Source of the DNA: Limnothrix sp. BL-A-16
GTDB taxonomy: Bacteria; Cyanobacteriota; Cyanobacteriia; CACIAM-69d
DNA length: 64,000 bases
Direction of reading: 5' to 3'
Assembly (NCBI GenBank): GCA_041937175.2
Contig: CP166615.1
Location: 3,232,001 to 3,296,000, forward strand
Shown: positions 18,292 through 44,119 of the stretch, one piece after another
Layout of the letters: every line of letters starts with the position of its first letter
How positions within the stretch are numbered: the stretch's first letter is position 1
Translations under genes and position numbers: made by a program
The notes under the pieces: generated by a model
The model's database searches: none
Told to the model about the DNA's origin: nothing
Seen by the model: the letters and a program-made list of their open reading frames with translations, nothing else

Positions 18292-18381
18292 CGGTTGGTC
18301 TTCGCTTCTGAATTGACCGCGATCGCCCGACCCGATAAGGTTCTAGGAGGAAATTTCTAGCGCAATAGGCAACCCCGAACC

Positions 18382-19107
18382 TTGGCTAAGACCGTCATTG
18401 CAGGCAACTGGAAAATGTATAAAACCCAGGCCGAAACCCTGGAGTTTTTGAAGCCCTTCGTTGAGCAAATCGCCGAAACCCCGGACGATCGCGAAATTGT
18501 GCTGTGCGTTCCCTTCACGGATCTCAGCGTGCTGTCCAATGCTCTTCACGGCAGCCGCATCCGCATCGGCGCGCAAAACGTCCATTGGGAAGCCAACGGA
18601 GCCTACACCGGCGAAATTTCGGCTGAAATGCTGACCGAACTGGGTGTTCGCTACGTGGTGGTGGGCCACAGCGAACGGCGGCAATATTTTGGTGAAACCG
18701 ACGAAACCGTCAACCGCCGATTGAAGGCGGCCCAAGCGGCCGGTTTGATCCCGATTTTGTGTGTGGGCGAAACCAAACAACAGCGCGACGCAGGCGAAAC
18801 CCAAACCCACATTGCCCAACAATTGAAGGCGGGGTTGGTGGGCGTGAACCTGAGCAATTTGGTGATTGCCTATGAACCCATTTGGGCGATCGGCACCGGG
18901 GACACCTGCGAATCCAAAGAGGCCAACCGAGTGATTGGCTGGATTCGCGATCAACTCAATGGTGAAGACTTGCCGATTCAATACGGCGGTTCCGTCAAGC
19001 CCGAGTTGATTGATGAAATCATGGCCCAACCGGAAATTAACGGTGTGTTGGTTGGTGGCGCGAGCCTTGACCCGATCGGCTTTGCTCGGATTGTGAACTA
19101 TCAATAA
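18382..19107 (+). CDS. tpiA: Triosephosphate isomerase
   Basis: [35 protein letters not shown]. Confidence 0.98.
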
Positions 19108-25416: not shown

Positions 25417-28400
25417 TTACCAAGGACTGCCAATTGTGGTGAAGCTGGCCCAATAGTAGGGGTGCGCTAGGGAAAAAGTCGCTAACTTGCTCGACTCCGG
25501 CGGCAAATCTACAACGCCACCGGGAAACACCAAGCGCCCATCTTCGGCCCGAGTTTGCCCCCGCAACATGGCAATTTGGGCCCGGCGCAGGGCTTCCGCT
25601 TTGATGGGGGCCGATCGCAAGGCATCATAGAACCCCGCCATCAGCCCCAAGGTTCCCTCATCACTCACATACCAGAGGCTAGCCACCACGGATTTCACCC
25701 CCGCATCCACCGCAAAGCCCGCAAATCCCAACTCCGCCGACTCATCCCCGATCGCCGTGCGACAAGCACTCAGCACCAACAATTCCACGGGCGGACTGCC
25801 CAACCCCAAGTAGCGCAAATCACTGACGGCTAGCCGTCGATCCCATAACCGCACAAAGGAATCTTGGGGAGAGCCGGGCCGAAAATCCGCGTGGGTGGCC
25901 AAATGCAAAATCGGGAACGGGTTCGATCGCCGCTGACGTTTCAGGTTTTCTAAGTTGAACTCTTCATTCAGAAAGGTTTTGTCCCGGGGAATGAGCCGCT
26001 GAATCGTGGCCAGCTCCACCGGCACGGCGGGCAACGGTGGCAAATCCGTGAACTCCGAGGCCCCAAAACTGAGCACCGGGGCCGATCGAATGGGTTCAAA
26101 CTGCGTATCGGTCAGGTTAATGCTGGGAATTAACCCAACGCTGTATTTTTCAATCAAAAACTGCTGGCCATCGTGCAACACGGACACGGGCAGCGATCGC
26201 ATCCCGCGATCCATCGAAAAGGCGATCGTGTCCACCTGATGGCGCACCAAATCTTCGGCCACGGGCCCCACAATCCAGCGGTATAGCTGTTCGGCCGGGG
26301 GGCGGTAGGTGTTGCTGATGCGGGCTACGGGGGTGGTGATGGCGGCTCGCAAATCATTCACCGCCTTCAAAACCCGATCGCGCTGGGCCTCGCGCACCAC
26401 TCGATAGATCGGTGGTGCATCGGGAATCACCAAAATCACATCCAACTGCTCAGGGCGAGCGAAGGTATACAAAATCGCCGGTTTCAGGCCCGTTTTGGAC
26501 TCCAAACGGCGCAATGTGCCCTGAAGGTCGGGAAAACTTTGCACATCGTTGCTCAGGGCCCGACCTAGATGGCCGTTGGTGAGGGTGGTATAGAGCCGAT
26601 CGATTTCCACCGCTGCCTTGTCCGAAGCACCGTCTTTCAGGTGGTCAATGATTTGACGACGGGCCACCTGTTCAACGTCCGTCAAATTGTCTTCCGATTG
26701 CGCCCCGTTGCCCATGGCCCGTTGCTGCACGCTGCGCCCCGCTTCCGGGTCAGCGCGATCGCCCTTCGCTTCTGGCTCCCCACCGGGAGTCGGCGTGGGA
26801 CTCGGAGAAGGCGTGGGACTCGGGGAAGGTGTGGGACTCGGGGAAGGTGTGGGCGTGGGGCTGGGACTCGGCGTGGGACTTGGTGTGGGACTTGGCGTGG
26901 GACTGGGGGAAGGACTGGGACTTGGGCTAGGCGTAGGGCTTGGATCAGGACTGGGGCTGGGGCTAGGACTGGGACTAGGGGTGGGAACTGGCTCGCCCGT
27001 GGTGATGAATTCGATGTTGCCCTGGGTGAAGGGGCCCGGAAAGGAACCGGTGCTGATGGTGCTGCTGCCGGTGGAAACGCCGCCCGCCAAGCCATTGCCG
27101 CCGCTGCTGGGCGTTTCGCCCACCACCAAAGGCACAACGGGCGTTTGGGAACCGCCGCCATGGGTGATGCGCACGGCATTCCCTCCCTGGCTGCCGCCCG
27201 TGGCAATGCTGGTCAAAACGCCCGATCGATCAATAAAAGCCCCCAGGGCCCGGAAAAAGCGCGTGCTCACAATATCCACGCTGCCACCCCGACCATCGCT
27301 CCCCCCTTGGGCGTTCAGGCTGGTGATTTGCACATCGCCCGGGCCCGTGAGGGTGAGGTTGGCGTTGCCACCATTGCCGCCAATGGCACTGAGATTCAGG
27401 GTTCCCAAACTGATGCCGGTGCTGGCGCGGGCCTGAAGATTGCCGCCTTGGCTGTTGCCGCTGGCGTTCAGGTTGCCCCCACTGATCTGGTCGGTGGCGC
27501 TGATCAGCGTGATGCTACCGGCGGCGTTTTGTCCCTGGGTGCTGAGGCTGCCAAAGCTGAGGGCCCGCTGGGCGGTGAGGGTGATGTTGCCGCCGCCGTT
27601 GCCCGCCGCCGTGATCAAACCGGCGATCGCGGCGCTGTTGTTGCTGCTGGCGATCGCCACATTGCCGGCCACGCCAATCACCGGAGCACTGGTGGACAGG
27701 TCGCCACTGAGGGCGATCGGGCCGTTGCTGTCGATCGTTACGCCGCCGCCGCTGCCATTGTTGCCGATCGCCTGGAGATTGCCCCCCACCGTCACCCCCG
27801 TGCTGCTATTAAGCGTGACTGCTCCCCCGGACTGACTGCCGCTGCTGGTGATGGCTCCCGTGGCGATCGCCCCGCCCGAGGTTCGCAATGTCACTTGCCC
27901 CCCGATCGGGCCCTGGCTGGTGATGGCTCCCGTGGTCAGGTTACCCGGCGCAGACAGGTTAATCGCCCCGCCGATGGTGTTAATGTCGCCCGTGGTGATG
28001 GAGCCACTACTGCTATTGAGGGTGATCGGGCCACCTTCGTTACCGGTGGTGCGCAAGGAGCCGGTGGTGATGCTGGAGCCGGCCGAGAGGTCGATCGCCC
28101 CGCCCTGGGTTTCCAGCGCCCCGATTGAGATCGCCTCGCCCGCTTGAATGGTGATCGGTGCGCCCAAGGTGCTCAACACATCGGCGGAATCCAAAAACCG
28201 CACATCGCGCCCCGCCGTGAACCGCACGGATCCCCCATTGGCCATCTGGAGACTGAGGCGATTGTCGGGTAAATTTTCTAGGAAAATATCCCGCTCCGCT
28301 TCCAGGATCAGGTTAGCGGTGCTCAACAACAGTTCTAAGCGCCCCTCACTGATTGTGAAGTCCACGGGAGTGGGCGGCCCCGTAAAAAAGCCTTGATCGG

Positions 28401-29781
28401 TGCGCAGAATCTGATTTTCTGGCTGGCCAAAGGGCACATTACCGCTCAATTCCGAATCATTAATGCCCACTAAACCGGGCACAATCCGAATATCCTGGGG
28501 ATCCAGCAGCAGCGTGCCCAAGGGGCCCAAGGGAGCCGTCAGATCCACCGTTCCCCGCACGGCCAGTTCCCCCTTGGCCGACAGTTCCACAAAACCACCC
28601 GGGCCACCGTTGGGGCCGCCCCGGGCCGCGATCGCCCCGCTATACCAAGTCAAACCATCGGCCCAAACAATCACCTGACCGCCTGCCCCTCGATCGGTGG
28701 CGTTGGCCTGAATTTGGCTGGCCCGATCGACCCAAGTGGCCCAAGCGCTGAACAGATTCCCGCTGCCCCGTTCGCTGCCGCCAATTTGCACCCGACCGCC
28801 CCCCTGAGGGCCGCTGGCTTCCAAATTAGCCCCCACCAAACCCACCCGATCGCCCCCGATCGTGATGCTGCCGCCGGGGCCGGTGGAGCGAGCGGTGTCC
28901 ACATTCCCGGCCACCACCACACCCCGATCGGGCAAGGCCACGGGCCCCGACGCGGCCGATTGCAACAGCACCGAGCCATCGGGATTGATCACCAACTGGG
29001 ACGCGGCGGCGGTGGGGCTGCCGGCCAACAATTCCGCCAGCGATCGCCCCCCGATCGCCCCCGGTTCCGGCAAGGCCACTTCCAAGGTCAAGGTGGATCC
29101 ATCGGGCGCAATCCTGACCCGATTCGTGCCGGGAATGGCGGCCACGGTCACGTTGCCCCCGGGCGCTTGCAGCCGGCCCGTGGACACCACGGAACCACCG
29201 CCCAACAGCCACAGATTTTGTCCTTCGCCCACGGCAAGGGAACCCCAGTTCAACAGATGACCAGGGCGATCGCTCACAAAATCCAGCCATTGCAAGGAGC
29301 CACTCAAGCCGCGAAAGTCTACGGGCCCTTGGGCGGGAAACCAACCGCCATCGCTGAAACCCAGCCGATCGGCGGTGGTGGCCATAAACGAAGCGGGCAC
29401 ATCCAACCGGGCCCCAGCCCCAAACAGGATCCCCGCAGGATTCATGAGATATAAATTCGCCTGGCCGCCGGAGACCCGAATCAGCCCTTCAATCACGGAC
29501 GGTTCACCCCCAGTGACGCGCCCGACGATCGCCCGCAAGTCCGGTGTGGCCAAAAAGTTAGCGATTTCCTGGGAACTGAGGCCCAGCCGCTGAAAGCTAT
29601 GGAACAGGTTATCGCCCGATCGGATGCCGCCGCCGATGTTGTATTGGTTGCCCTGTTGTTGGACGGTGGTGCCCAGGCCGTCGTTGGCGGGAACGATCGC
29701 CGGTTCGGCATGGACGGGGCTGGCCAGGAGGGCCATGCCGATGCCAAAAATCCCGATCGCCGTTTGCCGGTAACTACCCAT
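25417..29781 (-). CDS. Filamentous-hemagglutinin N-terminal (TPS) domain + CHAT protease protein
   Basis: [24 protein letters not shown], Gly-rich beta-helix repeats, PS/PT linker, CHAT HLATHA and LSACRTA, terminal HPYYWASF. Confidence 0.9.
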
Positions 29782-29919
29782 GGCTTTTCCTCGCTCGATC
29801 GCTGGGGGTGGATGTGTCCTTAGGGCGATCGTAGCTCGCAAACGGTTGATTAACCCTGGCTTAATTTGGAGCGGCGGGGTGGTTGGGGCGATCGGTTTTG
29901 GGGGTGGATGGTGGGGTTT

Positions 29920-29938
29920 GGCCCCGGGGGATGGGGCC
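29920..29938 (-). CRISPR. Degenerate terminal (trailer) repeat
   Basis: GGCCCC-GGGGGAT-GGGGCC keeps the repeat stem and 19-nt length, one spacer length (39 nt) from the first full repeat. Confidence 0.7.
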
Positions 29939-29977
29939 AATCAATGCGATTGCGCAACGCAAGGTCGATTTTTGCGG

Positions 29978-31843
29978 GTTTCCAATCAAGTGGGGGCCCC
30001 AGCGAGTGGGGCCCTGGTTGAACTGGCCTACAAGGTCAACGAAATCCCGGCGTTTCCAATCAAGTGGGGGCCCCAGCGAGTGGGGCCTCTGCTGTGCCGA
30101 CCACCAATGGGGCCGTTGAGGTGGGTCAGCCAGTTTCCAATCAAGTGGGGGCCCCAGCGAGTGGGGCCCGATCCACGGATTTTGGTGCAATCCCACCCGA
30201 TCGCTCAAGGTTTCCAATCAAGTGGGGGCCCCAGCGAGTGGGGCCAACCAAGGCAGCGGAAGCGCTGGGAGCTAAGTTCGATGCGCTGGTTTCCAATCAA
30301 GTGGGGGCCCCAGCGAGTGGGGCCTTGAGATCCCACCTGTACTAATCAATTCGCTGATGTTTCCAATCAAGTGGGGGCCCCAGCGAGTGGGGCCAAGACC
30401 GCTCTTTACTTTGAAGAATCCGAAGCAACGCGAAAGTTTCCAATCAAGTGGGGGCCCCAGCGAGTGGGGCCTTGGGATTGCCGTAATTACTTCTGCGACT
30501 GAACCCCCGGGTTTCCAATCAAGTGGGGGCCCCAGCGAGTGGGGCCATGGAACACTGGCAGGCGGATGGACTACTCCCCGAAGCGGTTTCCAATCAAGTG
30601 GGGGCCCCAGCGAGTGGGGCCTCCGTTGTTGTTGAGAGGTGAGGACTCGGGCGATCGATCAGTGTTTCCAATCAAGTGGGGGCCCCAGCGAGTGGGGCCT
30701 AGAAACCTTGCTGGCTAAGGAGCCGGAGTTGAAATACCAGTGTTTCCAATCAAGTGGGGGCCCCAGCGAGTGGGGCCGATTTGGGCGCGGAGACCAGCAA
30801 CTTCCTTGATGTCCTCGTTTCCAATCAAGTGGGGGCCCCAGCGAGTGGGGCCTTTGCATCGATCAATTGCCGATTGAGGGCCCGGTCAAGTTTCCAATCA
30901 AGTGGGGGCCCCAGCGAGTGGGGCCTCGAGTGTCTGGTTGGTTGTCCAGATCGAAAAAGAAACTCACTGTTTCCAATCAAGTGGGGGCCCCAGCGAGTGG
31001 GGCCACTGATCGAAACCTCCTGATTCCGCATTGGAAGGGTTTGCACTGTTTCCAATCAAGTGGGGGCCCCAGCGAGTGGGGCCTTGACATGGACTACGAC
31101 GAAGAGTTAAAGTTCGCGATCGCCTACTGGTTTCCAATCAAGTGGGGGCCCCAGCGAGTGGGGCCTTTGATCGCTTGCGTGAACGTGTTGACGCTCTTGA
31201 GAGTTTCCAATCAAGTGGGGGCCCCAGCGAGTGGGGCCGAGATTCGATACTTCGAGGGGGGATCCTGCAAGGCGAAATTGTTTCCAATCAAGTGGGGGCC
31301 CCAGCGAGTGGGGCCCTCTCTATTTTGAAGAGGCTGAGGCAGTTAGAAATTGTTTCCAATCAAGTGGGGGCCCCAGCGAGTGGGGCCTTTGGAAGCCAGT
31401 CAACGGGTGATAGACCAGCGCCAAAACGTTTCCAATCAAGTGGGGGCCCCAGCGAGTGGGGCCTTTGCCTGCTTTCTTGGCTTCTTATTTGATTAATGGC
31501 GAGTTTCCAATCAAGTGGGGGCCCCAGCGAGTGGGGCCCTAGATTCTAAGCAGATCGGTCAACTGACTGATGAGTGGTTTCCAATCAAGTGGGGGCCCCA
31601 GCGAGTGGGGCCCAATTAAGAGCCATGCCTAAAAAGATACCCAATCCAGGTTTCCAATCAAGTGGGGGCCCCAGCGAGTGGGGCCGTTTTGTTATGTCCC
31701 TACACATTCTTCGTGGCGCATATAACTGGTTTCCAATCAAGTGGGGGCCCCAGCGAGTGGGGCCTTGGTGACTGTTCTGACAGTAGCGATATAACCTTCG
31801 TCGTCGTGTTTCCAATCAAGTGGGGGCCCCAGCGAGTGGGGCC
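29978..31843 (-). CRISPR. CRISPR array: 25 identical 36-bp repeats (minus strand GGCCCCACTCGCTGGGGCCCCCACTTGATTGGAAAC), 24 spacers of 34-46 nt
   Basis: Counted directly; orientation from the 3' GAAAC end, right-side leader and left degenerate repeat. Confidence 0.98.
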
Positions 31844-32050
31844 TCCCCCCCAAATTAACCCTTGTGGCGTAAGGGTTGCAAGGTGCTCGATCTACAACCT
31901 CCCAAAGGACTGGACAAAACCCAAATTTTTGTTCCATGGAAAACGTCCAAAGCTCTTGCCCCACAACCGATCCACAACCTCCACGACAAAATGCGGGTTT
32001 CAGCCGATCGCCCCAGGTTGTAGATTTCCGACACATTGCGTTACAAAATG
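31844..32050 (-). promoter_or_regulatory. CRISPR leader
   Basis: Non-coding; GATC(T/C)ACAACCT motifs at 31889 and 31969 with an inverted copy at 32015-32025. Confidence 0.75.
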
Positions 32051-32123
32051 ACCGATCCTGACGGCGACGACAGCGGCCGCCCGCCCCAAACCTCCGCCTG
32101 GGCCAGCATTTGAACGGGCATAG

Positions 32124-33374
32124 TTACGTCGCCAAAGCCGATCGAATTTCGGCATTCAGGCGATCGAACGGATTATCTGTTAGCGAAACCGTCACAATTC
32201 CCTTCAAAATTCGGCGCAATTGATTCAACACCTCGTCAGGATTTTCCATGCGCGAAATACCCTTAAACTCATGCACCATTTGATTGCGATCGGCGCAGAG
32301 ATTTTCAATTTTGTCTAAATCTTTCAGCAGTTCTTTCGAGTCAGGATAACAATCCAAAATCAGCCGCATGGTCAGGCGATTGGGAAAATAGCTGGTGCGG
32401 ACGGCGCGATTTTTGGGGGCTGCCTGCTCTAGGGTGCGATAGACTTCACCGGATTTGAGAGCCTTGACCGCTTCCCAGAATCGATCGGTGTCGGCCTCAT
32501 TTTTGGGAAATTCTGCTAGCTGCCCGATCGCGTATTTCAGCACATTTTCTTGGATGCCAAATACTCGCGTAAAAAAGGTGAAATAGTCGCGATTGTTCAG
32601 CGACAACACTGCATTGAAATAGGCTTCCGCCAAAACCGTGGGCTTGTGTCCCGATCGCAGCTTGCCAATGTCCTTAGCCCAGCGATCGTCGATTTGGCCC
32701 GCCAGATTCTGAATCGCATCGTTGGCCCCATGAAAGTCGAAAGCCTTGCGACAACGGGCATATTCCAACAACCCTTGCAGGCGATCGGTTGCTAACTGGC
32801 TGGCTTCCAACTCCAACCAAGCACCGCTGTAGTTGTAGTCGGCAATTTGTTGCTCAATTCGCTTGCGATCGAACTCCTGCCGCAACACCAAAACATCAGT
32901 CGCAAACACCCGACTTTGATTCGGCTGCATTTTCTCGGGATTGCGAACTTGCCACACTTGGCTGTTACCGGCATAGCCCGCCGCCTGCAACAAACTGAAG
33001 GCCGATTTCATCGCTGGCGTACCCGAAGAGGCGTTAAATTCAATGCGATCGCCTGGCTCCAGCAGTAATTTCACCTGCTCCAAACCACGCTTCGCTTCTT
33101 GGGCTGCCAATAACAAATCGGTCGGGTCTTTTGAGAGTTGATTGCTAGTGGGAATTAGCTCCACCGACAACCCCGATAATTGCGCTTCTGATTCGATATG
33201 ATCTTGGGTGTCGCGGGCGTTTTTGGCTGTGCCTTCCGTATGGAGCAACAGCACTTTTTTAATCGTTGTCCCCCGATTCAACAAAAATCGCAGCAAACTA
33301 ATGATCGATCCTTCGGTTTCCGTCGCGGCAAACGGATCTTGATTACCCACAAACGACAAAACAACACTAGCCAT
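32124..33374 (-). CDS. CARF (RtcR/Csm6-like) + HEPN ribonuclease, putative cOA effector
   Basis: SFVGNQDP, DPTD, NASSGTPAMK CARF motifs; C-terminal RNQMVH (Rx4H). Confidence 0.78.
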   Translation of the reverse strand: MASVVLSFVGNQDPFAATETEGSIISLLRFLLNRGTTIKKVLLLHTEGTAKNARDTQDHIESEAQLSGLSVELIPTSNQLSKDPTDLLLAAQEAKRGLEQVKLLLEPGDRIEFNASSGTPAMKSAFSLLQAAGYAGNSQVWQVRNPEKMQPNQSRVFATDVLVLRQEFDRKRIEQQIADYNYSGAWLELEASQLATDRLQGLLEYARCRKAFDFHGANDAIQNLAGQIDDRWAKDIGKLRSGHKPTVLAEAYFNAVLSLNNRDYFTFFTRVFGIQENVLKYAIGQLAEFPKNEADTDRFWEAVKALKSGEVYRTLEQAAPKNRAVRTSYFPNRLTMRLILDCYPDSKELLKDLDKIENLCADRNQMVHEFKGISRMENPDEVLNQLRRILKGIVTVSLTDNPFDRLNAEIRSALAT

Positions 33375-33422
33375 GATTTTGAGTTTAGAGAGATCGGCTT
33401 TAGTTTGGAGAAAAATCAACCA

Positions 33423-34085
33423 TCAATCGACCAGTTCAGATTTGGCTACGGGTCTCGTGTTTATCTCTGTTTGAATTTGGGCATAAAGCAATTGAGCCTG
33501 TCCCTCGATGGATAAACTAGATGAAATGCCAATCGCTAGACCAAGGAACAATCCCATCAGGAAAGTGCCTATAAATCCACTAAATCCTAGAAAACCACCC
33601 AAAACCAACCCTAAAAGCAGTCCAAACAATCCTCCAAAAATGCTATAGCCTAACAATAAAGATTTCGCTTGGTTGCGAAGTCTGGATGCTACTTTTAAGG
33701 CAAATTCGGGATTATAAACCAGTCGCATTTGATCAGAAGACTGTGATAATTCTGAGTACACTGATTCAGAGTATTGCTGATGAACTTCAGTGCCCGTTAA
33801 ATAAAAAATCTCATTCCAAATAGGTCTAAGTTGTCCAGTTTTTCTGGCTTCAAGGTTCAGAACTTCGATTCCTTCCGGTTGAATCGTTTTGAGGCCACGC
33901 ATCAGGCGATCGCGGATTTGTTCTAGTTGGGGTGGATTTTCTCCCTCAAAGGTCAGCTTCAGTTCATTGCCGTTGGTGCGGCCTTTACAAGTCCAGCCCT
34001 CTTTTTGGAACGATCGATTCAGCATCGCCGCGATCGCCCCTGGTTTGCCCTGTTTTGCCAAGTTGAGAAGCGTGTTATCTGCCAT
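33423..34085 (-). CDS. Hypothetical membrane protein within the cas operon
   Basis: Soluble N-terminal domain (LAKQGKPGAIAAMLNRS) plus Gly-rich two-TM hairpin. Confidence 0.75.
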   Translation of the reverse strand: MADNTLLNLAKQGKPGAIAAMLNRSFQKEGWTCKGRTNGNELKLTFEGENPPQLEQIRDRLMRGLKTIQPEGIEVLNLEARKTGQLRPIWNEIFYLTGTEVHQQYSESVYSELSQSSDQMRLVYNPEFALKVASRLRNQAKSLLLGYSIFGGLFGLLLGLVLGGFLGFSGFIGTFLMGLFLGLAIGISSSLSIEGQAQLLYAQIQTEINTRPVAKSELVD

Positions 34086-34148
34086 GACTGGATTCCTCCA
34101 AGGTTGATACACAACAAACGTGAAAAGGGCGATCGCAGAGCAAGCCAA

Positions 34149-34808
34149 TCACTGGCGATCGGAGATCACACTAGATCGCAACTGTTGGCGAAGCTGGGCT
34201 TCCGCTGCAATTTCATCTTGTTCAGAAGCCGCCAAAAATTGATAGAGCTGGGCTTTTTCGATTGTGGGAAAGGTGGGACTTTGGCTCAGTTCTTGATAGG
34301 TTCGATCAGTTTGGAGGGCATAAATTTTCCATTCCTGACCGTTGTAGCGCCAAAATTCAGGAATTCCGAGGCTGGCGTAGAGGTTGAGCTTGTCGATGTC
34401 GGTGTGGGTGATGTCAATTTCTACGACCAGATCAGGCGGTGGATCGGTGTTCAGATCAATAGTTTTGCCAGCGACTTTGGGTTGATTTTGAATGTAGTAA
34501 GCGAGGTCTGGTTCGGCGGCGCGATCGAGATCGGGGCGATCGAGCCTGGTCGATCCCAAGCTTTTGAGTTTTAGCCCCAGTTCTGCAACCAAGATGCGAA
34601 TAAACAAGCCGATTAATTCACGGGAAAATTCATGCAGTTCCAGGGGCATAACAAGTTCAATTTTGCCGCGATCGTAGGTTAGCCGCACCGATCGTTCTTC
34701 CCCCAACGCGGCTAGCAAGTGGCGATATTGTTCAGGGGTGCGATCGCATAACAAAAAACGCTGCTCTGCGATCGGTCTAGATAGTTTGGACTGAATCAAA
34801 ACAGTCAT
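34149..34808 (-). CDS. Uma2-family (PD-(D/E)XK) endonuclease
   Basis: EPDLAYY, PPDLVVEIDIT, YASLGIPEFWRY. Confidence 0.9.
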   Translation of the reverse strand: MTVLIQSKLSRPIAEQRFLLCDRTPEQYRHLLAALGEERSVRLTYDRGKIELVMPLELHEFSRELIGLFIRILVAELGLKLKSLGSTRLDRPDLDRAAEPDLAYYIQNQPKVAGKTIDLNTDPPPDLVVEIDITHTDIDKLNLYASLGIPEFWRYNGQEWKIYALQTDRTYQELSQSPTFPTIEKAQLYQFLAASEQDEIAAEAQLRQQLRSSVISDRQ

Positions 34809-34835
34809 AGTCTTACAAAGCCCCTATTGCAGTCA

Positions 34836-36323
34836 TTACAGCTCATTAACTTCCTCAACTAGTTTCTGATGTACCAAAACCATCAGACTGGCAACACCAT
34901 CTTCATCATCAACTTGATCGATTAACTTGAAGTTTTGATCAGAAATAAAATTTAGGCAATTCAAAACACACTTTTTCCAAAGACTTTCAGGATCAAAGGC
35001 TCTGGGATCAATTTTCCAAGCCTGGAAAACGGATTCTTTTCCTTTTAATCCTGAAAGTTGATGAAATAAGTCATTTCTATTCTTAAATACATGATTCCCA
35101 AACGTCCATATATCTAGATTTCGTGATTTATCAATTCGCTTCTCAAGGTTAAGGGCAAAATATAAGTCTTTTCCATAGCGATTGAGATTCTTTTCTCCGA
35201 TAGTGATAACTCTTGATTCAGCAGGAAATTTCCGATCAGCCCATTTTCGCAATAGTCCCTCAACAGCCCGAAAGCTGTGGAACATAGCTTCCACAGTGTC
35301 TACGCGCTCCAGGCGCTTCACGGCTAGATAAGCAGACTCATAGGCTGTTGACCACCACAATTGCTTTCTTTGAAGAGCCAAGTCATGAAAGTAAGGAATT
35401 AAACTTAGCGTGTCAAAGAACTTGTCGAATTCTGCAAAATTCCACTGAATTGCAGCCTCCAGCAATAGGCTCAGCTCTTGAGATAATCCAAAATTGAGCA
35501 ATTCTTGAACTGCTGCATAATTGCCAAATTTCAGTAGCTCTCTTGCTTGTTGCTTTTTAATTCCGCGCAGATAGCTAGAGCTTTCAATGAACTGCGCTGA
35601 GTTTTCTTGAGTGTCGCTTGTCTTGAGATTATTTTGATTTTCACTGGTGACTAAGAAACGTACGCGATCGCCAAAGTAGGACAAGGACATAAACTGCACA
35701 GCCGAAGAAATAGCCGGTGTGCTAGCCTGATGGCTCACGTACACTTGCTCAAGCTCGCCATCAGTTGCCAGTAGATCATTATTTAAAACGGCAAATTTTT
35801 GGCGCACCAGCTCCAGTACTGAATCCCAATTATCCAAACTGTCCGCAACAGTCTCTGGTTGCAAAACAATTGGCTCTACTACTTGAGCATTCGGCAACTG
35901 CTCGCTAAAGTAGCGCTTTAAAATTGGGAGCAGTTCAGAAGTATCTTGCCAATACGGGCTTTTTACCCCTCGTTCAGTCCGACCATCTGCAAAAATCTTG
36001 GATTGGTCAGTCAGGACTAGAACGATTTGATTTAGTTCACCAGGCTGCCGCACTTTCCGAGTGAAGTTTTCTAAAAGAGGAAAAACCAGTTGGCAAAAAA
36101 TAGTGCTTTGGATCTCTGATTGATTTTGATAAACAGACCCAAGAACCCGTGCAGGAACGCGAAGCACTTCATCATTACTTTTAAAGTGAATCTTCTTAAA
36201 ATCTACATGATACTTCTCATCATAATCTACTTCAAGACACTCATACCAGTCATCCCAGCAAGAGTTTCTTTTCAACTGAATATCGCTGCTGCCGATTGTC
36301 AAAATCCAAATCTTAATCTTCAT
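34836..36323 (-). CDS. Divergent CARF-like + HEPN protein, putative second effector
   Basis: TIGSSD, LTDQ, QDT, HQASTPAIS Rossmann-like motifs; FRAVE and RNDLFH (Rx4H). Confidence 0.62.
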   Translation of the reverse strand: MKIKIWILTIGSSDIQLKRNSCWDDWYECLEVDYDEKYHVDFKKIHFKSNDEVLRVPARVLGSVYQNQSEIQSTIFCQLVFPLLENFTRKVRQPGELNQIVLVLTDQSKIFADGRTERGVKSPYWQDTSELLPILKRYFSEQLPNAQVVEPIVLQPETVADSLDNWDSVLELVRQKFAVLNNDLLATDGELEQVYVSHQASTPAISSAVQFMSLSYFGDRVRFLVTSENQNNLKTSDTQENSAQFIESSSYLRGIKKQQARELLKFGNYAAVQELLNFGLSQELSLLLEAAIQWNFAEFDKFFDTLSLIPYFHDLALQRKQLWWSTAYESAYLAVKRLERVDTVEAMFHSFRAVEGLLRKWADRKFPAESRVITIGEKNLNRYGKDLYFALNLEKRIDKSRNLDIWTFGNHVFKNRNDLFHQLSGLKGKESVFQAWKIDPRAFDPESLWKKCVLNCLNFISDQNFKLIDQVDDEDGVASLMVLVHQKLVEEVNEL

Positions 36324-36327
36324 AACA

Positions 36328-38115
36328 TTAGTTCCTTCCCCAAACTAGTTGAAACTCTGCTGGATCAGTTGATGAGGATTTCAAAAAATCAAGAAACTCT
36401 CTACATTCGTTAGAGTCGTCCAAGAAAATTGTTAAAATCTCGAAGAATTGATCAGTTTGAATAGCCATTTTCTCTCCTGGCTGATTAGGATTGTCAATTA
36501 AGCAAATTTTAGGATACATGCGATGGATAACTCTACCAATAGTAGATTTGTCAGATTCAACTAACCCCGTTAGAGAAGTCTTGTAAATTGATTTCTCCTG
36601 CTCAGTCTTCAAAATTGCCCGTTGATAAGGCTTATGAAACCAAGACACTGCACGAGAATCACTCATACCTTCAGCCAAACGTGCCCACACTTCAACTTTG
36701 CTAGGATGCCAAGACTCTCGCCAATTTTTAGCCCATCGATCTGATTGAATGGTTAACTTTTCTTGCTGTTCGAGCCATTCACGTTTCAATTCCATCCATT
36801 CACTCGCTGTTGATCGAACACTATCTAAAAACGAGCAAATGCTTTTAATACTCGAAACACTCCTATTGAGTCTCCGGCTCTTTTCATCTGACCACTCCCA
36901 ATGGCAACCAATTAGAGGCTTATAACCGCGAGAATTTTGATAGTAGACATTCCAAAATTTTTGGTGATCAACTCGTCGCCAAGATTTTCCGAATCCACCT
37001 AAAAATAAAGCAAACTGCATCAGCTTTTTAATTAGCTTTGCTAGTGTTTTTTCGTGATGAGAATCATCTAGTGATCGATTTAGAAGCCAAACCAAATTCC
37101 CTTCAACAACATACTGTCCTGAAGGAAAAGGTTCGACATTTGGTGGCAACGGGTGAAACTGGAATCCAAGTAAACCAACAGTTGGTTTGTTAGATTGAAT
37201 CCCTCCAAAAAGGTCTTCAACTAGTCGCTCTGCTATTTTACAATCTGTCAAGCCACCAAATAGACGCAAAGCATGGCCTCGCAATGCAGCACGAAAAATA
37301 TTAGGGCGAAACTCAGCTGAGCCATCTAGCAGCTTGGGGGCTTGCCCTTGACCCTTGAGTTTTGCTGAATACAAAACCTTACGCACCTTAACAGATGTCG
37401 CTTTCACAGACTGCCCATAGCCCGTGGCAGTCTTAGAACCCAAGCCAACGGATAGTGCTCGCTCCCAAATTGTCCAAATCGTTTGCCACTCAGCATTCAA
37501 TAGTGGTTGATTACTCGAAATGGCAAAACGCAACTTTGGCTGATACAGTGAAACCATGGAATAGGCCGTTTCACCAGACGGCTTTTTATCTGTTTTCATG
37601 GTTTTAACCTGCCATTCTTGCTGAGGGTGAACAAGGTCAATTAGGCCCTTTGTCCAATCATTGGTTGGATAAGCACCAAGAAAGCGCAGAATTCCGGGGC
37701 ATAGATCGGTTTCTTTGCCGCAATAGCGATCAGTGCTGCCTACCAACACCATTCCTAATGCCTCGGCCTGCTCACAGGCACTCCGAAACGCCCCCTTCAT
37801 ACTGCTGCCTGGATAGAACGGAATTCCCGCCTTCCCCAAAACCGGCCGAATAATCCCATCATCCTGACCTCCATTAGTGACAAATCGCCAGGAAATTTGA
37901 TAGGACTTAGCACTATAAACCGGTGTTTGTTCGTCCTTAGCATCCCGAGCAGGAATCTGTTCAGCCTTGTCAATCCACTCATTAACCCACTTATCAATGT
38001 CGCGTGGTTGGCCGTCTTTAGTTTTACCTGCATATTGCAGTTTGGATCGCCCATCAATCTGAGCGCGAAACATCCTCGGTACTTCTTCATAGCTGTCAGG
38101 AATCGCTGGCATCAT
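36328..38115 (-). CDS. cmr6: Cmr6-Cmr1 fusion RAMP protein
   Basis: First RAMP (PGSSMKGAFR...GLGSKTATGYG), second RAMP (FRAALRGH...LGGFGKSWRR). Confidence 0.82.
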   Translation of the reverse strand: MMPAIPDSYEEVPRMFRAQIDGRSKLQYAGKTKDGQPRDIDKWVNEWIDKAEQIPARDAKDEQTPVYSAKSYQISWRFVTNGGQDDGIIRPVLGKAGIPFYPGSSMKGAFRSACEQAEALGMVLVGSTDRYCGKETDLCPGILRFLGAYPTNDWTKGLIDLVHPQQEWQVKTMKTDKKPSGETAYSMVSLYQPKLRFAISSNQPLLNAEWQTIWTIWERALSVGLGSKTATGYGQSVKATSVKVRKVLYSAKLKGQGQAPKLLDGSAEFRPNIFRAALRGHALRLFGGLTDCKIAERLVEDLFGGIQSNKPTVGLLGFQFHPLPPNVEPFPSGQYVVEGNLVWLLNRSLDDSHHEKTLAKLIKKLMQFALFLGGFGKSWRRVDHQKFWNVYYQNSRGYKPLIGCHWEWSDEKSRRLNRSVSSIKSICSFLDSVRSTASEWMELKREWLEQQEKLTIQSDRWAKNWRESWHPSKVEVWARLAEGMSDSRAVSWFHKPYQRAILKTEQEKSIYKTSLTGLVESDKSTIGRVIHRMYPKICLIDNPNQPGEKMAIQTDQFFEILTIFLDDSNECREFLDFLKSSSTDPAEFQLVWGRN

Positions 38116-38116
38116 C

Positions 38117-38545
38117 TCACTTCCCAATTTTGTAACGCTGAGTCCACCAAACCAAGCAATCGCAAAGCTGTGTCAAAACGGCGATCGCCACTCGTTGATC
38201 TTCAATTGATAAAGACCAAAGTTTTTTGGAAACTTCTTCAATCTTTTTGGAAGCTTCTGAATTTTTTAAATCAACAGTGTCTTTAGGCAATAGAATTCCA
38301 GCGTCTTCCATTACTCCACAGAAGGCATCCCACGTATCTTTCCAATATTTAGATTTTGCCACCTCCAGATTCTCTTTTTTATTACCACTAGCCAAGCGCA
38401 AATGTTCTCCCCAAAATCGCTCTAGTCCATAGGCCACGGACATACGCATTTTGTGGGATTGATTCATAGAGTCTGGATCACGCTCACGTGCTGACAACAC
38501 CAATTTCTGCGCAACACGATCAAGTTCATAGGACTTCCAAGTCAT
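38117..38545 (-). CDS. cmr5: Cmr5-like small subunit (Cas11)
   Basis: 142-aa helical protein between cmr4 and cmr6; YGLERFWGE and LVWW motifs. Confidence 0.72.
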   Translation of the reverse strand: MTWKSYELDRVAQKLVLSARERDPDSMNQSHKMRMSVAYGLERFWGEHLRLASGNKKENLEVAKSKYWKDTWDAFCGVMEDAGILLPKDTVDLKNSEASKKIEEVSKKLWSLSIEDQRVAIAVLTQLCDCLVWWTQRYKIGK

Positions 38546-39357
38546 TACTGGTCACCTCCTGAGAGCAACACACGACAGCGACCAAAGCCAATGGATTCGA
38601 GTCCACCAAAATAGATTTCAGATTCCTTATGCTCTCCAAAGGGTTCCCATCCGTGTTCTTTTAAGGCAATAGGAAAAATCATAATGCTCCCTTCTGGTAA
38701 AGCTTCAGTATTGAAAAATGCCCCCTTCGTAACCTTTTTCTCAGCATCATCGAGTTTGACTCGGCTTTGACGATAAAGTGCCATGTCATGCAGCATGGAA
38801 ATATCATTGTCATCAACGACCACGAGCTTATTTCGATCTAGATCAATATCAGCAGGCACCCAAGGAGATAGATCAGCCGTATTCGTAATCTCCAAAAATC
38901 CAAGATTGAAGAACAGAATTTTTCCTCGTCCTTGAACTTGTCGTCCTTGTAGCCCTTTTGGTGCAGTGTAGGGTGCAGGTACATCGGCTTTGATGCCTGT
39001 AATCCGTTTATAGCGCTTGAGCAAAGATGGGCAACTCACCCAAACCACCGGCTGTCCTGGACAGAAAACTGGAAACCAAACCAATGAAGCATATTCAAAC
39101 TTCACCAAGGCTTCAGTAGTTCCGCCATCTGGTTGATTATCTACAGCTTCATGACCATACCAGTAGTTAGTTGCTGTGCGATCCGAACCCCGCATCTCTG
39201 CCCGAAAGCGACCACGAATCGAACTACCGGGAATAATGCCGGTTTGGGTGAACTGATCCCGAAAGATTAGGTTCAAATTACCGGTTTCTTCACCCGCCGT
39301 TGCCCCCACATGCAACGGGGCAAGGGTTTCAATTATGCCGAACGCTCTGTTGTACAT
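38545..39357 (-). CDS. cmr4: Cmr4 (Cas7 backbone RAMP)
   Basis: PLHVG, IIPGSSIRGRFR, FNTEALPEG, GGLESIGFG. Confidence 0.9.
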   Translation of the reverse strand: MYNRAFGIIETLAPLHVGATAGEETGNLNLIFRDQFTQTGIIPGSSIRGRFRAEMRGSDRTATNYWYGHEAVDNQPDGGTTEALVKFEYASLVWFPVFCPGQPVVWVSCPSLLKRYKRITGIKADVPAPYTAPKGLQGRQVQGRGKILFFNLGFLEITNTADLSPWVPADIDLDRNKLVVVDDNDISMLHDMALYRQSRVKLDDAEKKVTKGAFFNTEALPEGSIMIFPIALKEHGWEPFGEHKESEIYFGGLESIGFGRCRVLLSGGDQ

Positions 39358-40445
39358 TCTGGGACTCCTTGAATTTCAACCGGTAAACATAGACCACATC
39401 CCAATTGCTTGAGTGAAAATCCTTCCTTGGGAAACCACTCTTCAGGAAAATCCCACCAGGTCATGTTTAAAGGCTCGCGGAAAACATAAACACTGCCACT
39501 GGGAACGGCATACCGCCCTCGCCCTAGTCGCCGCCCTTTTCGAGGATCATCTTTGTTTTGACCCACTCGATAGCGATAGGGCACAGGTTTATCCATCAAC
39601 AACTTGAGGTCACGCTTCGGGAAACTCGGATGTTGTGGATAACGATAGGAAAGGTTATTTGACCCCCAAACGGCCGGAGTGATTAAGGCAAAAGCATGAG
39701 AGATTTTTTGAGCTAGCAACCGATTTAATGGATGTCGCTCGTTAATTGGTTTAGTTTCAATCTCTGCCAAATGTCCTTCGCCACCAAGCCGATACCAACC
39801 ATTGAGATCAATAGTTTCCAAATTAGTTAAGTAAACTAGGCATACATCTTCAGGAAGTTGAACAGCATTTTCCAAAAACAAGCCATCTTCATGCAATACA
39901 TGACGCTCATCATTCCGCATTTGAGTATGTAGGAATGGGGTTGATTTCCAGGGAGATGATCTAAGAGACTGATCGTTTTCTTTAATTTCCTCGTTAGTCC
40001 AGTTCCAGGTATTAATGCGTTGCCAGATGGTTGATGCTGAACCCTTAATATCTCCAGATCCTCGATGCCAGCGATATTGATTGAGATATTGACTATTTGA
40101 CTGATTGGATTGTCGTGCTAGCGACCACTCATCTACTGATGCCCATTTATTTTCGCCTGTTGCACCAATGATCCGATGACGAGGCATAGGCACATAAAAG
40201 TCTTTAGGACTCCTGGTGTATGCCCAAAATGGTCCCGCAACCACTAGTTCTTGTTGAAGTAGGCTTGGATTCATGAAGTTTTGAATTTGATTTGCACCCA
40301 AAATTAGTCCAGATATTGCAGCAGCATCGGGAGGAAATTTATAGTTGGATTTGCCTACCAGACTGCCTATCGACAGAAATCCTCCAGAGCTGGCATACAT
40401 AAAGCCCAATGGAGAAATAGTCACTAGAGATTTGAATTCCGACAT
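39333..40445 (-). CDS. cmr3: Cmr3 (Cas5)
   Basis: FPPDAA, LGGEGHL, LITPAVW, YAVPSGSVY, KQLGCG. Confidence 0.88.
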   Translation of the reverse strand: MSEFKSLVTISPLGFMYASSGGFLSIGSLVGKSNYKFPPDAAAISGLILGANQIQNFMNPSLLQQELVVAGPFWAYTRSPKDFYVPMPRHRIIGATGENKWASVDEWSLARQSNQSNSQYLNQYRWHRGSGDIKGSASTIWQRINTWNWTNEEIKENDQSLRSSPWKSTPFLHTQMRNDERHVLHEDGLFLENAVQLPEDVCLVYLTNLETIDLNGWYRLGGEGHLAEIETKPINERHPLNRLLAQKISHAFALITPAVWGSNNLSYRYPQHPSFPKRDLKLLMDKPVPYRYRVGQNKDDPRKGRRLGRGRYAVPSGSVYVFREPLNMTWWDFPEEWFPKEGFSLKQLGCGLCLPVEIQGVPECTTERSA

Positions 40446-42181
40446 AATTGCCACCCTACTTCGATCAGATCATCTACCCACATGATGAAGCGAAAGCCTT
40501 TATCTACAAACTCGAGATTTCCAAAGAATTTATGCAGCCCATCTCGCATTACTGCACTCCAAATTCTAGAGCTTTGATTCTGGAAGTACAAATCAAAAAT
40601 TGTCTGGGCTACGTCACGATGTATAGGGCGATATTTCTTCGGATCGAGCAAAATAGCATGGCGATCCTTTAAAGCAGCCCAATCACTGTAGATATGACTC
40701 CAGTTCGCTTCAGCACCTGTTTTGTTGTTACGATCGCAATAGCTATCCAAAATTGCTAGCTCATCCCAGGGGCAAGTCCATTGCACAAATCGACCGCTGT
40801 TGAACACGATGCGGATGGTGACTCGATCGCGCCCTAGGTTTTTTGAGCGTTGTTCAGCTTCTCGGCAATGCTGCAAAATATCGCGTTGTGGAACCTGATG
40901 ACCAGCCCAAACAAACCCCACGCTATACGTCAGCTTAAATCCCAATTCGTGCTGCGTATCTGCTTGGATTTGTTGCCATTTCTCGGGGAGCTTTTTTAGC
41001 CAGTTCCATGCTTCAATCGGCTGAACTTTTGCTGGCAATTTATTTGAGTTACTAGGCTCTTCGCTATAAAGAACACCAAGAAAGTCATCCCCACCAGCAT
41101 AAATCACACGCCCCTTTCCCTCAGGAAATAGCTCTTTTGCTTTGGCAAACTTTTGCCCCCAATTTCGCATTAAGGTTGAAAATCGTTGAAGATTGCGATC
41201 ACGTTTTTGGGGGCTATCAGGATAGCGATTAGCCAGGTCAGTTAGTTTGTCACCCACCTTGTCACCATCGCCCATAAACCAACCTGTCCAGTAATCCTTC
41301 TCGCGGTAAATATCGCGAAACGACGTTTCAGGATGATCAATGCCAATATCAAGCGCTAATGGCTCAAAGGTAACAAGGCGTTTTGCCAGCTCAGGAATGC
41401 TCAAGCGTTCGCGGGGGCTGATAAATTTCCCGCCGTCATTATCTGGATTAGCAAAGTGATCCTTCAGTTCCTGATCAGAAGGAAATGATTGATGGCAGCG
41501 CTTAAAATCATCCAAAATCCAGGCTAAGCGAAGATAAAAACGCTCGATATCCTGTCTTTCGCTGGCTGAAAACGATCGCCCTGGATTGTTGTCAGGTTTG
41601 CCCAATCCGGGCCAGGCGATCGCATCAGTTCCCGTAATACTGGAGCTTTCACCAACCCAATTAATCCCAATCCAATCCCGCTTCAGCTTACGAGTTTCCA
41701 AGTCCTCCATCGCTGATTGGGGTGTTGTGCCATAGCCCCAAAACACTTCCCACGCATAGAGTCCCCAGCGCTCCCACTCACCGGCCCCACGCCGATCGCC
41801 CGGGATGGGCTGTGACCAAAAGTAGGACTCACTGGGTAGGTTCTGCTCAATCCAGCATCGGCAAGATTGAAGGAGCATTTGCCAATGCTTGAGCAGACTC
41901 TTTTTGACATCATGGCGCTTAATTTTTGGCCCTTTCAGCAAAATGCGATTGGGCATACCTCTTTGATGATCAATGCAGGCAGGGGAAATTACTTCAGCGC
42001 TCTGCCCATCTGCATTTCGGGTTAGGTCTTCAATTAGTTTTTGGCTCAGATAGGACAAAATTTGGGAAGCGCCAAACAAATCACGCAACTTACGAGACTT
42101 TTCGATGAACCCTTGGACGGGCGCAAAACTAATGGCGGTGTAAATGACGGCGGAATCAGACATCTTCTGTTCTGAAGTCAT
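40424..42181 (-). CDS. cas10: Cas10/Cmr2 lacking the HD domain
   Basis: Begins directly at PVQGFIEKSRKLRDL; GDGDKVG and YAGGDDFLG palm motifs; only 585 aa. Confidence 0.92.
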   Translation of the reverse strand: MTSEQKMSDSAVIYTAISFAPVQGFIEKSRKLRDLFGASQILSYLSQKLIEDLTRNADGQSAEVISPACIDHQRGMPNRILLKGPKIKRHDVKKSLLKHWQMLLQSCRCWIEQNLPSESYFWSQPIPGDRRGAGEWERWGLYAWEVFWGYGTTPQSAMEDLETRKLKRDWIGINWVGESSSITGTDAIAWPGLGKPDNNPGRSFSASERQDIERFYLRLAWILDDFKRCHQSFPSDQELKDHFANPDNDGGKFISPRERLSIPELAKRLVTFEPLALDIGIDHPETSFRDIYREKDYWTGWFMGDGDKVGDKLTDLANRYPDSPQKRDRNLQRFSTLMRNWGQKFAKAKELFPEGKGRVIYAGGDDFLGVLYSEEPSNSNKLPAKVQPIEAWNWLKKLPEKWQQIQADTQHELGFKLTYSVGFVWAGHQVPQRDILQHCREAEQRSKNLGRDRVTIRIVFNSGRFVQWTCPWDELAILDSYCDRNNKTGAEANWSHIYSDWAALKDRHAILLDPKKYRPIHRDVAQTIFDLYFQNQSSRIWSAVMRDGLHKFFGNLEFVDKGFRFIMWVDDLIEVGWQLCRNSNL

Positions 42182-42408
42182 GTTGAAAGTCCCGTGGCCT
42201 AATCAAGCTTGAAGCGACTTGATTGTTTTCACATCTGTGCCTTGGCTACCATCCTAAGGGATGCATCCCCTAAGCGAGGTGTAAGTTTTGATATTGTTTA
42301 TTAAGCAACATCAATGCTTGTAAGGCTTTGTGTTGTTGGGTTTGGCGCGATCACCCTCTGGCCGGGAAAATAATATTTCTGGGTAGGCGGACGGCTGGAG
42401 ATGTGTTA

Positions 42409-43575
42409 ATGGCAACCCGATCGCATCATGGGTACGAGGAGCCGATCGCCTTCGATCGCCTGCTGCTGTTGGCGGCCCTGTTGGCTCAGGAGCCGGGCAG
42501 CGGAGCGATCGAAGCGGGGGGCTTGGCTGCGATCGGGGCGGCCCTGCGCGATCGGGCGACGGCCCTGGGGCGGCCCTTTCCGGCAGATTACCCCTCGATT
42601 CCGACCTTGCGGAAGGATTTGGCCACCTTGCGGGCCTACGGACTGCTGGGCGATCGGATGTATCGCTGGGGCTATTACCTAGGGGTGGGTGGGCTGTCAG
42701 CGGCGGAACTGACGATCGCCCTGAATGGGTTGCGGCTGATGGCGATCGACCTGGGCGATCCACAGGTGGCCCAATGCTGGGAGGCGATCGAGCGGCGGCT
42801 GAAGTCTTGGGATGCGGAGGCCAAGGGGCAACTCACCTATCTGCTCCGGCGATCGCTCTCGCGCCCCGTGAGTGAGCAAGACCCGATCGCCCGGATGCAA
42901 CGGGGTCAAGATTGGGATCGGCTGGCGGAACGGTTGGAGGCGATCGAGCAGGCAATTTTGACCGGCCAGGCGATCGAACTGAAGGTGGCCCGCTCACCAC
43001 ACCCGGACGATCGGGGCGATCGGGAGCGGCTCTATCCGTTGCAGTTGCTGTTTTACGACGTGGGTTGGTATTTGCTCTATGAAAAAGTGGATTCGGGCCA
43101 GTTTGCCACCCGGCGGATCGATCGCCTGAGTGCGGAGGTGCGACCGTTGCCGTTGCCGCCCCGGGGCTTACGGATCCAATGGCAACGGCTGCGGAAAGCG
43201 ACGGATCTGCTTTCGGCCGGTTGGGGACTGTTTTTAGGGGAAGCGACGGAACAGGCGCAGGAGTTGGCGGGGCGGGAATCGTTGGTGTCGGCGGCGGTGC
43301 GGTTTTGGCGGCCGACGGCGGATTTTATTGCGGAGGGCGATCGCCGCCACCCATCCCAGGAGATGAGCTGGGGAAGTTCGACGGGCGAGGGGCGCGATTG
43401 GTTGGATTTTCGGGTGCGGTTGCCGAGGCGATCGATCGCTGAGTTTGGGCGGTGGGTGCGGCGGTATGGGAGCGATGCGGTGGTGCTGGAGCCGCCGGAG
43501 TTGGTGGCGCAGTTTCGGCAGATGGCGATCGCCCTGGCCCAGGCCTATGGGGTTGGGGCAGGCGGTTCTAGCTGA
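42409..43575 (+). CDS. HTH-WYL-WCX transcriptional regulator, divergent from cas10
   Basis: TLRKDLATL HTH, LYPLQL..GWYLL, RIDRL, YGSDAVVLEPPEL; RBS GGAG. Confidence 0.88.
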   Translation: MATRSHHGYEEPIAFDRLLLLAALLAQEPGSGAIEAGGLAAIGAALRDRATALGRPFPADYPSIPTLRKDLATLRAYGLLGDRMYRWGYYLGVGGLSAAELTIALNGLRLMAIDLGDPQVAQCWEAIERRLKSWDAEAKGQLTYLLRRSLSRPVSEQDPIARMQRGQDWDRLAERLEAIEQAILTGQAIELKVARSPHPDDRGDRERLYPLQLLFYDVGWYLLYEKVDSGQFATRRIDRLSAEVRPLPLPPRGLRIQWQRLRKATDLLSAGWGLFLGEATEQAQELAGRESLVSAAVRFWRPTADFIAEGDRRHPSQEMSWGSSTGEGRDWLDFRVRLPRRSIAEFGRWVRRYGSDAVVLEPPELVAQFRQMAIALAQAYGVGAGGSS

Positions 43576-43976
43576 TTGAGGGCCCCGCAGATATATTTCT
43601 TGACGGTTTCGCGGCTGGCGGTCACGCCGCTGGGCAAGGTAAACACCATCTCAACGGTGGTTTGGTTATTTTCTGCGAAGGCAAATACGTCAATGGGCAA
43701 GGCCCGTTGAAAGGCGGTGGCGGGATTTTCGGCGCGCATCGTACCGTTGGCTACGTCGGTGCTGAGGGTGCGAATGCCTTCGCGGGCCAAAATCACCCGC
43801 AGTTGAAAGAAGGCTCTTTCGACGGATAGGCCTTGGACTTGGACGCGGGCGAAGTAGGCGGAACCGTTGAAGAAGTCGCCTTTTTTGTCGAAGCTTTCTT
43901 CGCAGGTGGTGGCCAGGGCGGGCGTGCCAAGGCAGAGCAAGGCCAGGCTCAGGAGGAGCGATCGCATGGTTTGCAT
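43545..43976 (-). CDS. Small secreted hypothetical protein
   Basis: Signal peptide ending PALA; two Cys. Confidence 0.72.
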   Translation of the reverse strand: MQTMRSLLLSLALLCLGTPALATTCEESFDKKGDFFNGSAYFARVQVQGLSVERAFFQLRVILAREGIRTLSTDVANGTMRAENPATAFQRALPIDVFAFAENNQTTVEMVFTLPSGVTASRETVKKYICGALNQLEPPAPTP

Positions 43977-44119
43977 GATCGGGTCGAAGAACAAAACCTC
44001 AGGATTGCCGATCGGGAATGGGCATGGCCATAGCGGTGTGACACAAAGGAGCCACAGCACGCGATCGTGTAGAGCAATGATGGCGGCCCAAGTAATCGGA
44101 AATAGTCGGCTTGCCCGAT

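Follow-up and report, generated by a model that had tools for sequence, protein, structure and literature searches.

Cmr4 proteins without the canonical catalytic aspartate in a clade of cyanobacterial CRISPR loci

Genes and features of the locus

The window, by which we mean the whole analysed stretch of 64,000 nucleotides from Limnothrix sp. BL-A-16, contains a cas operon in the order cas10-cmr3-cmr4-cmr5-cmr6, followed downstream by genes for two CARF-HEPN proteins and by a CRISPR array (Table 1). All core cas ORFs are intact, and the locus appears to be a Cas6-less cyanobacterial variant of type III-B. The large Cmr6-type subunit aligns over residues 65-385, a span that takes in both G-rich loops, with a 649-aa protein of Synechocystis pSYSA (BLASTP E 1e-11), and judged by sequence it corresponds to the Synechocystis Cmr1-Cmr6 fusion. 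The array repeat has in common with the pSYSA (L001) repeat its GTTTCCAATCAA start (the 5' 12 nt) and the 3' stem motif ...CGAGTGG.G.C, and repeats of the pSYSA CRISPR3 family are found in the arrays of 18 of the 20 sister loci compared, all of which come from other genomes. The array is probably read on the minus strand, by analogy with the published III-Bv repeat structure (PMC12464536).

Table 1. Features of the cas locus, with window coordinates and the basis of each assignment.
Feature	Coordinates	Strand	Basis
WYL/WCX-domain protein	42328-43575	plus, divergent from cas10	WCX E 5.8e-9; WYL E 2.8e-4; PADLOC WYL E 1.7e-21
Cas10/Cmr2, 585 aa	40424-42181	minus	Cmr2_N residues 15-72 and palm2 301-455 (Pfam); GGDD and GDGD
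Cmr3, 373 aa	39333-40454	minus	PF09700 E 2.3e-12
Cmr4 (Cas7 backbone), 270 aa	38545-39357	minus	TIGR02580, PF03787, predicted fold
Cmr4 active-site loop, residues 16-34 = HVGATAGEETGNLNLIFRD	39256-39312	minus	translation and alignments
Cmr5 (Cas11 small subunit), 142 aa	38117-38545	minus	PADLOC Cmr5 E 2e-60
Large two-RAMP Cmr6-type subunit, 599 aa	36328-38127	minus	PADLOC Cmr6 (499 positions) E 2.2e-183
Csx1-like CARF-HEPN, 495 aa, invariant R416-N417...H421	34836-36323	minus	PADLOC CARF1--CARF_HEPN E 1.3e-111; Csx1 E 4e-88
Uma2-family (restriction-endonuclease-like) gene	34149-34808	minus	PF05685 E 2e-21
241-aa protein, hydrophobic C-terminal part, membrane-like	33423-34148	minus	no family match
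Csm6-like CARF-HEPN, 431 aa, RNQMVH motif	32124-33419	minus	PADLOC CARF1--CARF_HEPN E 8.4e-141; Csm6 CARF domain
CRISPR array (25 copies of a 36-nt repeat), downstream of the cas operon	29978-31843	probably minus	repeat family

The cyclase signatures of Cas10 are retained, with a palm2 domain (E 3.5e-12) and both the GGDD and GDGD motifs. Residue 10 of this protein aligns with residue 218 of the 979-aa Cas10 of Synechocystis pSYSA, in which Cmr2_N runs from residue 222 and an H-D dipeptide is found at residues 15-16. Since Cmr2_N of the window Cas10 begins as early as residue 15, these positions together indicate that it has no HD region, in agreement with the first-pass annotation. We considered whether HD might be encoded separately upstream of cas10 by a split gene and rejected this, as the divergent WYL gene comes next. 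The same architecture recurs in the sister loci, where all 19 complete Cas10 proteins are 489-585 aa long, start at the Cmr2_N motif ...YTAI.FAPVQGFIEKSRKLRDL... and keep GGDD; the twentieth is cut by a contig end.

The Csm6-like protein scores 86.8 bits against TIGR02672, under the cut-off of 150, and for the 495-aa CARF-HEPN protein a profile comparison with PDB sequences gave chance matches only. Homologues of the 495-aa protein are present in 10 of the 20 sister loci, and the Csm6-like protein in two. We further scanned 40 ORFs from the nine sister loci that have neither of the two window proteins. Six of these loci encode other CARF proteins (CARF-HEPN, CARF-RelE, CARF-DUF2103, CARF-TM); of the remaining three, one has only a Csx3-AAA protein and two have none. 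Overall, a CARF protein lies within 9 kb in 17 of the 20 sister loci. The Uma2-family gene, probably a passenger, and the ORF of the 241-aa protein lie between the two CARF-HEPN genes, and each is found in none of the 20 sister loci. The WYL/WCX protein is a likely regulator.

Neither Cas6 (PF01881) nor Cas1 (PF01867) was matched in the 100% complete genome (4.56 Mb), which carries the 25-repeat array; control genomes were positive in both searches. Maturation of the crRNA in III-Bv systems relies on two host enzymes, RNase E and RNase J (PMC12464536; PMC6546367). Cas1 or RT-Cas1 adjoins the module in several sister loci (L036, L038, L040 and L052), and a TnpB/Cas12f-like ORF (PADLOC Cas12f E 2.9e-97) lies beside the sister locus L037 at 17379-18674. 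Cmr4 is the sole match to PF03787 at E <= 0.001 in the complete genome, and a second, canonical backbone elsewhere in it is therefore rejected.

The cassette of cas and effector genes (32000-42200) has a GC content of 40-52%, against 56-65% in its flanks, and has the look of an island gained by horizontal transfer; the neighbouring array is at approximately 55-60% GC, and its version of the repeat is GC-rich. No Rfam family matched in a scan of 28000-44000. Outside the cassette, tandem repeats with units of about 65-70 nt occupy 14370-14800, and 26767-26991 holds an 18-nt periodic G-rich repeat that is probably coding and is unrelated to the repeats at 14.4 kb.

The residue at the catalytic position of Cmr4

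The Cmr4 gene, which starts with ATG at 39357-39355 on the minus strand, lies between cmr3 and cmr5. Its product matches TIGR02580 with an E-value of 4.3e-23 and 82.5 bits, slightly below the equivalog cut-off of 87, and the Pfam RAMPs family PF03787 with 60.6 bits (cut-off 22.1). A structural model predicted from a 102-sequence alignment (pLDDT 92.8, pTM 0.90) replaced an earlier one that was made from 20 close relatives alone and reached a pLDDT of 43.6. The top Foldseek matches of the retained model are all solved Cmr4 chains (E down to 2.4e-17, TM-score 0.70-0.74).

The role of the canonical aspartate is documented in several type III complexes. The P. furiosus chains 4wnz, 4rdp and 4w8w read ...HPGSGTELGVVDQPIQRE... 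with D26, which matches the GVVDQPIQR motif quoted in the first-pass annotation, and the residue numbers H15, D26, E32 and D86 in excerpts of PMC4333402 agree with the aligned chains. According to the same excerpts, D26A abolishes target cleavage and E32A leaves cleavage unaffected. D86 is part of an inter-subunit salt bridge, and D86A lowers activity. The substitution D26N abolishes cleavage with target binding unaffected (excerpt of PMC4762429). For the III-Dv complex, the Asp of each site is described, in an excerpt, as coordinating Mg2+ at the scissile phosphate. Passages of a preprint on Cmr-beta (10.1101/2020.06.24.163345) place D31 in an active-site loop that spans G21-P33, at a distance of 3.8-4.9 A from the scissile 5'O, name no protein residue in the site besides D31, and mention E39 and E149 of Cmr5 as lying near it.

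The corresponding loop of the window Cmr4 reads G-N-L-N-L where canonical proteins have G-x-x-D-x-P. The Pro is absent, the loop falls one residue short of the canonical G-x-x-D-x-P-I-x-R-E, and residues 25-32 include no Asp or Glu, whichever alignment is used. Translation bears out the earlier reading of codon 29 as AAC (39273-39271, minus strand), giving N29; of the loop span proposed with it, the end at 39312 stands, whereas the start at 39255 is one base too far and belongs at 39256. Four independent alignments, each with a one-residue gap at the canonical Pro, place N29 on the Asp equivalent to Pf D26. These are a phmmer alignment with the DtCmr4 chain 9arw_C, an alignment of the clade profile with PfCmr4, an hhalign comparison of the clade with 78 canonical Cmr4 proteins (probability 99.95, E 6.8e-38), and a MAFFT alignment of 102 sequences in which the column has 76 Asp, 20 Asn, two Glu and four gaps. 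Every one of the 78 canonical sequences in the MAFFT alignment is acidic at this column (76 Asp and two Glu), and none of the non-canonical ones is. Two ungapped alignments (4qts_C and 9lq6_D) instead put L28 on the Asp, with N29 one position further, so the exact equivalent is N29 or L28. At the level of sequence, this confirms that the catalytic-Asp position of Cmr4 is occupied by Asn29 or Leu28, the four gapped alignments giving the Asn of the first-pass annotation.

Nearby acids were also considered as substitutes. D34, which had been raised as an alternative active-site residue, aligns with Pf E32, and because the E32A mutant cleaves normally (PMC4333402, in the excerpts), D34 is rejected as a hidden catalytic residue. 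E23 and E24 are still candidate substitutes, because the loop block 21-30 is modelled at a pLDDT of just 61; at this low confidence residues 23-25 form a turn that points away from strand 28-31. Separately, Tyr89 (39091-39093) is the equivalent of the salt-bridge residue D86 of PfCmr4. Among the 102 aligned Cmr4 proteins this column holds D 71, E 11 and Tyr 17, the Tyr being that of the window clade.

Conservation and distribution of the aspartate-less loop

A word-indexed search returned 1892 relatives of the window Cmr4. The best 120 of these are cyanobacterial proteins of 65-100% identity, which carry GNLNLIFRD in 119 cases and GNLSLIFRD in one. An exhaustive search of representatives gave 540 proteins at E <= 0.001, with a sharp break between a close group of at least 51% identity and canonical Cmr4 at approximately 25-40%; Asn29 is present in 31 of the 31 close-group representatives that include the N-terminus. 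Position 29 is thus Asn in 150 and Ser in one of the 151 clade members examined, and Asp or Glu in none. The single Ser variant suggests that the position tolerates another small polar residue.

Per-column agreement with the query, taken over 38 clade members of 56-92% identity, is 96.6% for loop residues 22-34 and 70% for the whole protein, making the loop the best-conserved segment of Cmr4 in the clade. N27, L28 and N29 are invariant in these 38 proteins, E23 is found in all of them and E24 in 37. Acids are nearly absent from the E23 and E24 columns in canonical Cmr4, so these two residues are specific to the clade. The Asn-type loop is present in 20 of the 20 sister loci, where Asn29 is encoded by AAC in 13 and AAT in seven. 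The use of both codons indicates selection on the amino acid, and the recurrence of the motif across relatives shows that Asn29 is neither a chance occurrence nor a sequencing error. The missing Asp is a trait of the whole clade and not a local mutation of one gene. Of 401 genomes sampled from the phylum, 90 have any Cmr4 match and 47, the genome under study included, have a Cmr4 of the window type (E <= 1e-88), with fragments in two more.

The Asp is also absent from the III-Bv Cmr4 of Synechocystis pSYSA (L001 6977-7756), which is 33% identical to the window Cmr4 and whose loop, ...TTQEGNLLGIARES... (also ...QEGNLLGIARES...), is two residues shorter than the canonical one. A third, small group without the Asp (P0166 and P0180) has the loop ...RGNNNPIYR..., with no acid in it; this group is sister to the window clade on the tree. 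A maximum-likelihood tree was made from 106 sequences by a quick method without bootstrap and is unrooted. In it a single branch (SH-aLRT 98) separates all 28 carboxylate-less sequences from the 78 canonical D/E sequences, so that one change of state suffices. The split is kept, again with one change, when the loop columns (residues 14-36) are removed (SH-aLRT 99), for which the program warned of long branches meeting at the split. From these sequences, a single origin of the Asp loss is compatible with the tree.

Target cleavage, signalling and known systems

Taken together, we think it probable, by a modest margin, that the complex binds target RNA without slicing it and that defence proceeds through cyclic-oligoadenylate signalling. 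The first-pass annotation had likewise suggested a backbone that may not cut target RNA, prolonged Cas10 signalling and a complex with no intrinsic nuclease, and the sequence comparisons support this. The carboxylate that holds the metal in position and gives a proton to the leaving group at every 6-nt cleavage site would be lost from Cmr4, whose sequence points to a loss of slicing. Since no part of Cmr4 is under stronger purifying selection than the loop, the crRNA-loaded Cas10-Cmr3-Cmr4-Cmr5-Cmr6 complex would most likely still bind complementary transcripts; it would probably slice bound transcripts not at all or only very slowly. With the HD nuclease of Cas10 absent and its cyclase intact, an Asp-less Cmr4 and an HD-less Cas10 would make up a complex without a nuclease of its own. 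Cyclic oligoadenylate made by Cas10 would then activate the two CARF-HEPN proteins encoded downstream, and these would constitute the defence. Activation of Cas10 would be prolonged and would be switched off in other ways, for example by ring-nuclease activity of the CARF proteins or by host RNases. Engineered loss of Cmr4 cleavage leads to lethal autoimmunity in S. islandicus (PMC9368842), which implies that some compensating control must operate in a natural non-cleaving system.

Some observations weigh against this non-slicing reading. Such strong conservation of the loop is atypical of a decayed active site, and the acidic, clade-specific E23 and E24 could possibly represent a relocated carboxylate. 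In addition, the Synechocystis system provides plasmid interference that no single deletion of an accessory gene abolishes (PMC6546367). Slicing might have been kept through a relocated acid, either E23/E24 at the loop tip or an acidic residue of Cmr5, possibly with an altered rate or register. The near-invariance of both glutamates in the clade and their near-absence from canonical Cmr4, their location where the protein is most conserved, the single Glu that the Synechocystis-type group keeps directly before its GN, and the proximity of Cmr5 E39 and E149 to the site in Cmr-beta (in the passages of the preprint 10.1101/2020.06.24.163345) all fit this alternative. However, the third Asp-less group has no acid anywhere in the loop, the single Asp is irreplaceable, even by Asn, in all systems studied, and the model, at low confidence, turns residues 23-25 off the strand 28-31. 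We regard retained slicing by a relocated acid as unlikely, though it is the alternative to be taken most seriously.

The backbone might also present the RNA for cutting in trans, whether by host RNase E or J or by the activated CARF-HEPN RNases. In type VII systems a ribonuclease is recruited to a Cas7 that is catalytically inactive (PMC13069675, in an excerpt), RNase E and RNase J already mature the III-Bv crRNA (PMC12464536), and the genome has no match to Cas6 (PF01881). Yet no dedicated nuclease gene is conserved beside the core genes across the 20 sister loci, and we found no evidence that a nuclease is recruited, which makes cutting in trans rather improbable. Least credible of all is that the system is a remnant in decay, with the loss of the Asp belonging to this process. 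The failure to find Cas1 (PF01867) in the genome and the low-GC character of the cas cassette could be read in this way, but the core ORFs are all intact, the array has 25 repeats, the GGDD and HEPN motifs are preserved, and the loop motif is conserved across many genera with synonymous codon variation.

Extending the non-slicing reading to the wider group, we see roughly even chances that the cyanobacterial III-B lineage that includes Synechocystis CRISPR3 gave up slicing in one old event, and that the branch of the window, being HD-less as well, became a pure, long-lived RNA sensor, which would be unable to turn itself off through target slicing. Slicing of target RNA by Cas7 is regarded as a timer built into type III immunity. 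If the proposal is true, target cleavage is not universally required to regulate this immunity, and these organisms must hold another safeguard against autoimmunity. A natural, widespread clade that lacks the canonical Asp, keeps cyclic-oligoadenylate signalling and has no HD domain offers a direct test of whether signalling without slicing can be kept under control, and could supply naturally long-lived RNA sensors, which are now made by mutation for diagnostics. Because the Asp is also missing in the well-studied Synechocystis CRISPR3 system, the proposal can be tested in an existing model. A literature search of the full texts of papers returned no paper on Asp loss in III-Bv or related cyanobacterial Cmr4 and no report that pairs an HD-less Cas10 with a cleavage-deficient Cmr4.

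A close known system is the III-Bv system CRISPR3 on pSYSA of Synechocystis sp. PCC 6803. The two have in common the two-RAMP Cmr6-type subunit, the repeat family, the lack of Cas6 (reported in PMC6546367 for Synechocystis and seen here in the PF01881 search), and the absence of the Cmr4 Asp, with both proteins on the same side of the tree. They differ in Cas10, since the 979-aa Synechocystis protein has about 215 extra N-terminal residues with the H-D dipeptide, a region absent from the window Cas10. These sequence comparisons make the window system sister to the Synechocystis III-Bv type, not a member of it. Canonical Cmr4 of P. furiosus, T. thermophilus, S. islandicus and A. fulgidus (4w8w, 3x1l, 6s8b, 9arw) has the same fold and the same operon position, but it carries x-[IV]-D-x where the window protein has N-L-N in a loop that lacks the Pro and is shorter by one residue, and it differs further at D86 of PfCmr4, which is replaced by Tyr89.

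Other type III systems share parts of this combination. In the subtypes described in 2025 in PMC12669027, as excerpted, the catalytic aspartates of Cas7 are also not conserved; there the cyclase is inactivated, the CARF effectors are lost and the HD domain is apparently active, which is the reverse of the situation in the window. The Vibrio metoecus Cmr-NucC system (PMC8682760) likewise has an HD-less Cas10 and relies on a cOA-activated effector, and its abstract gives no hint that the Cmr4 Asp is lost. The nearest equivalents at the active site itself are the engineered mutants PfCmr4 D26N and D26A, SisCmr4-alpha D27A, which is toxic in S. islandicus (PMC9368842), and Cmr4-beta D31A. All of these lack the carboxylate at the same position, and D26N introduces the very residue found in the window. 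These mutants were made in the laboratory, whereas the state seen in the window is natural, old and conserved, and is accompanied by a remodelled loop.
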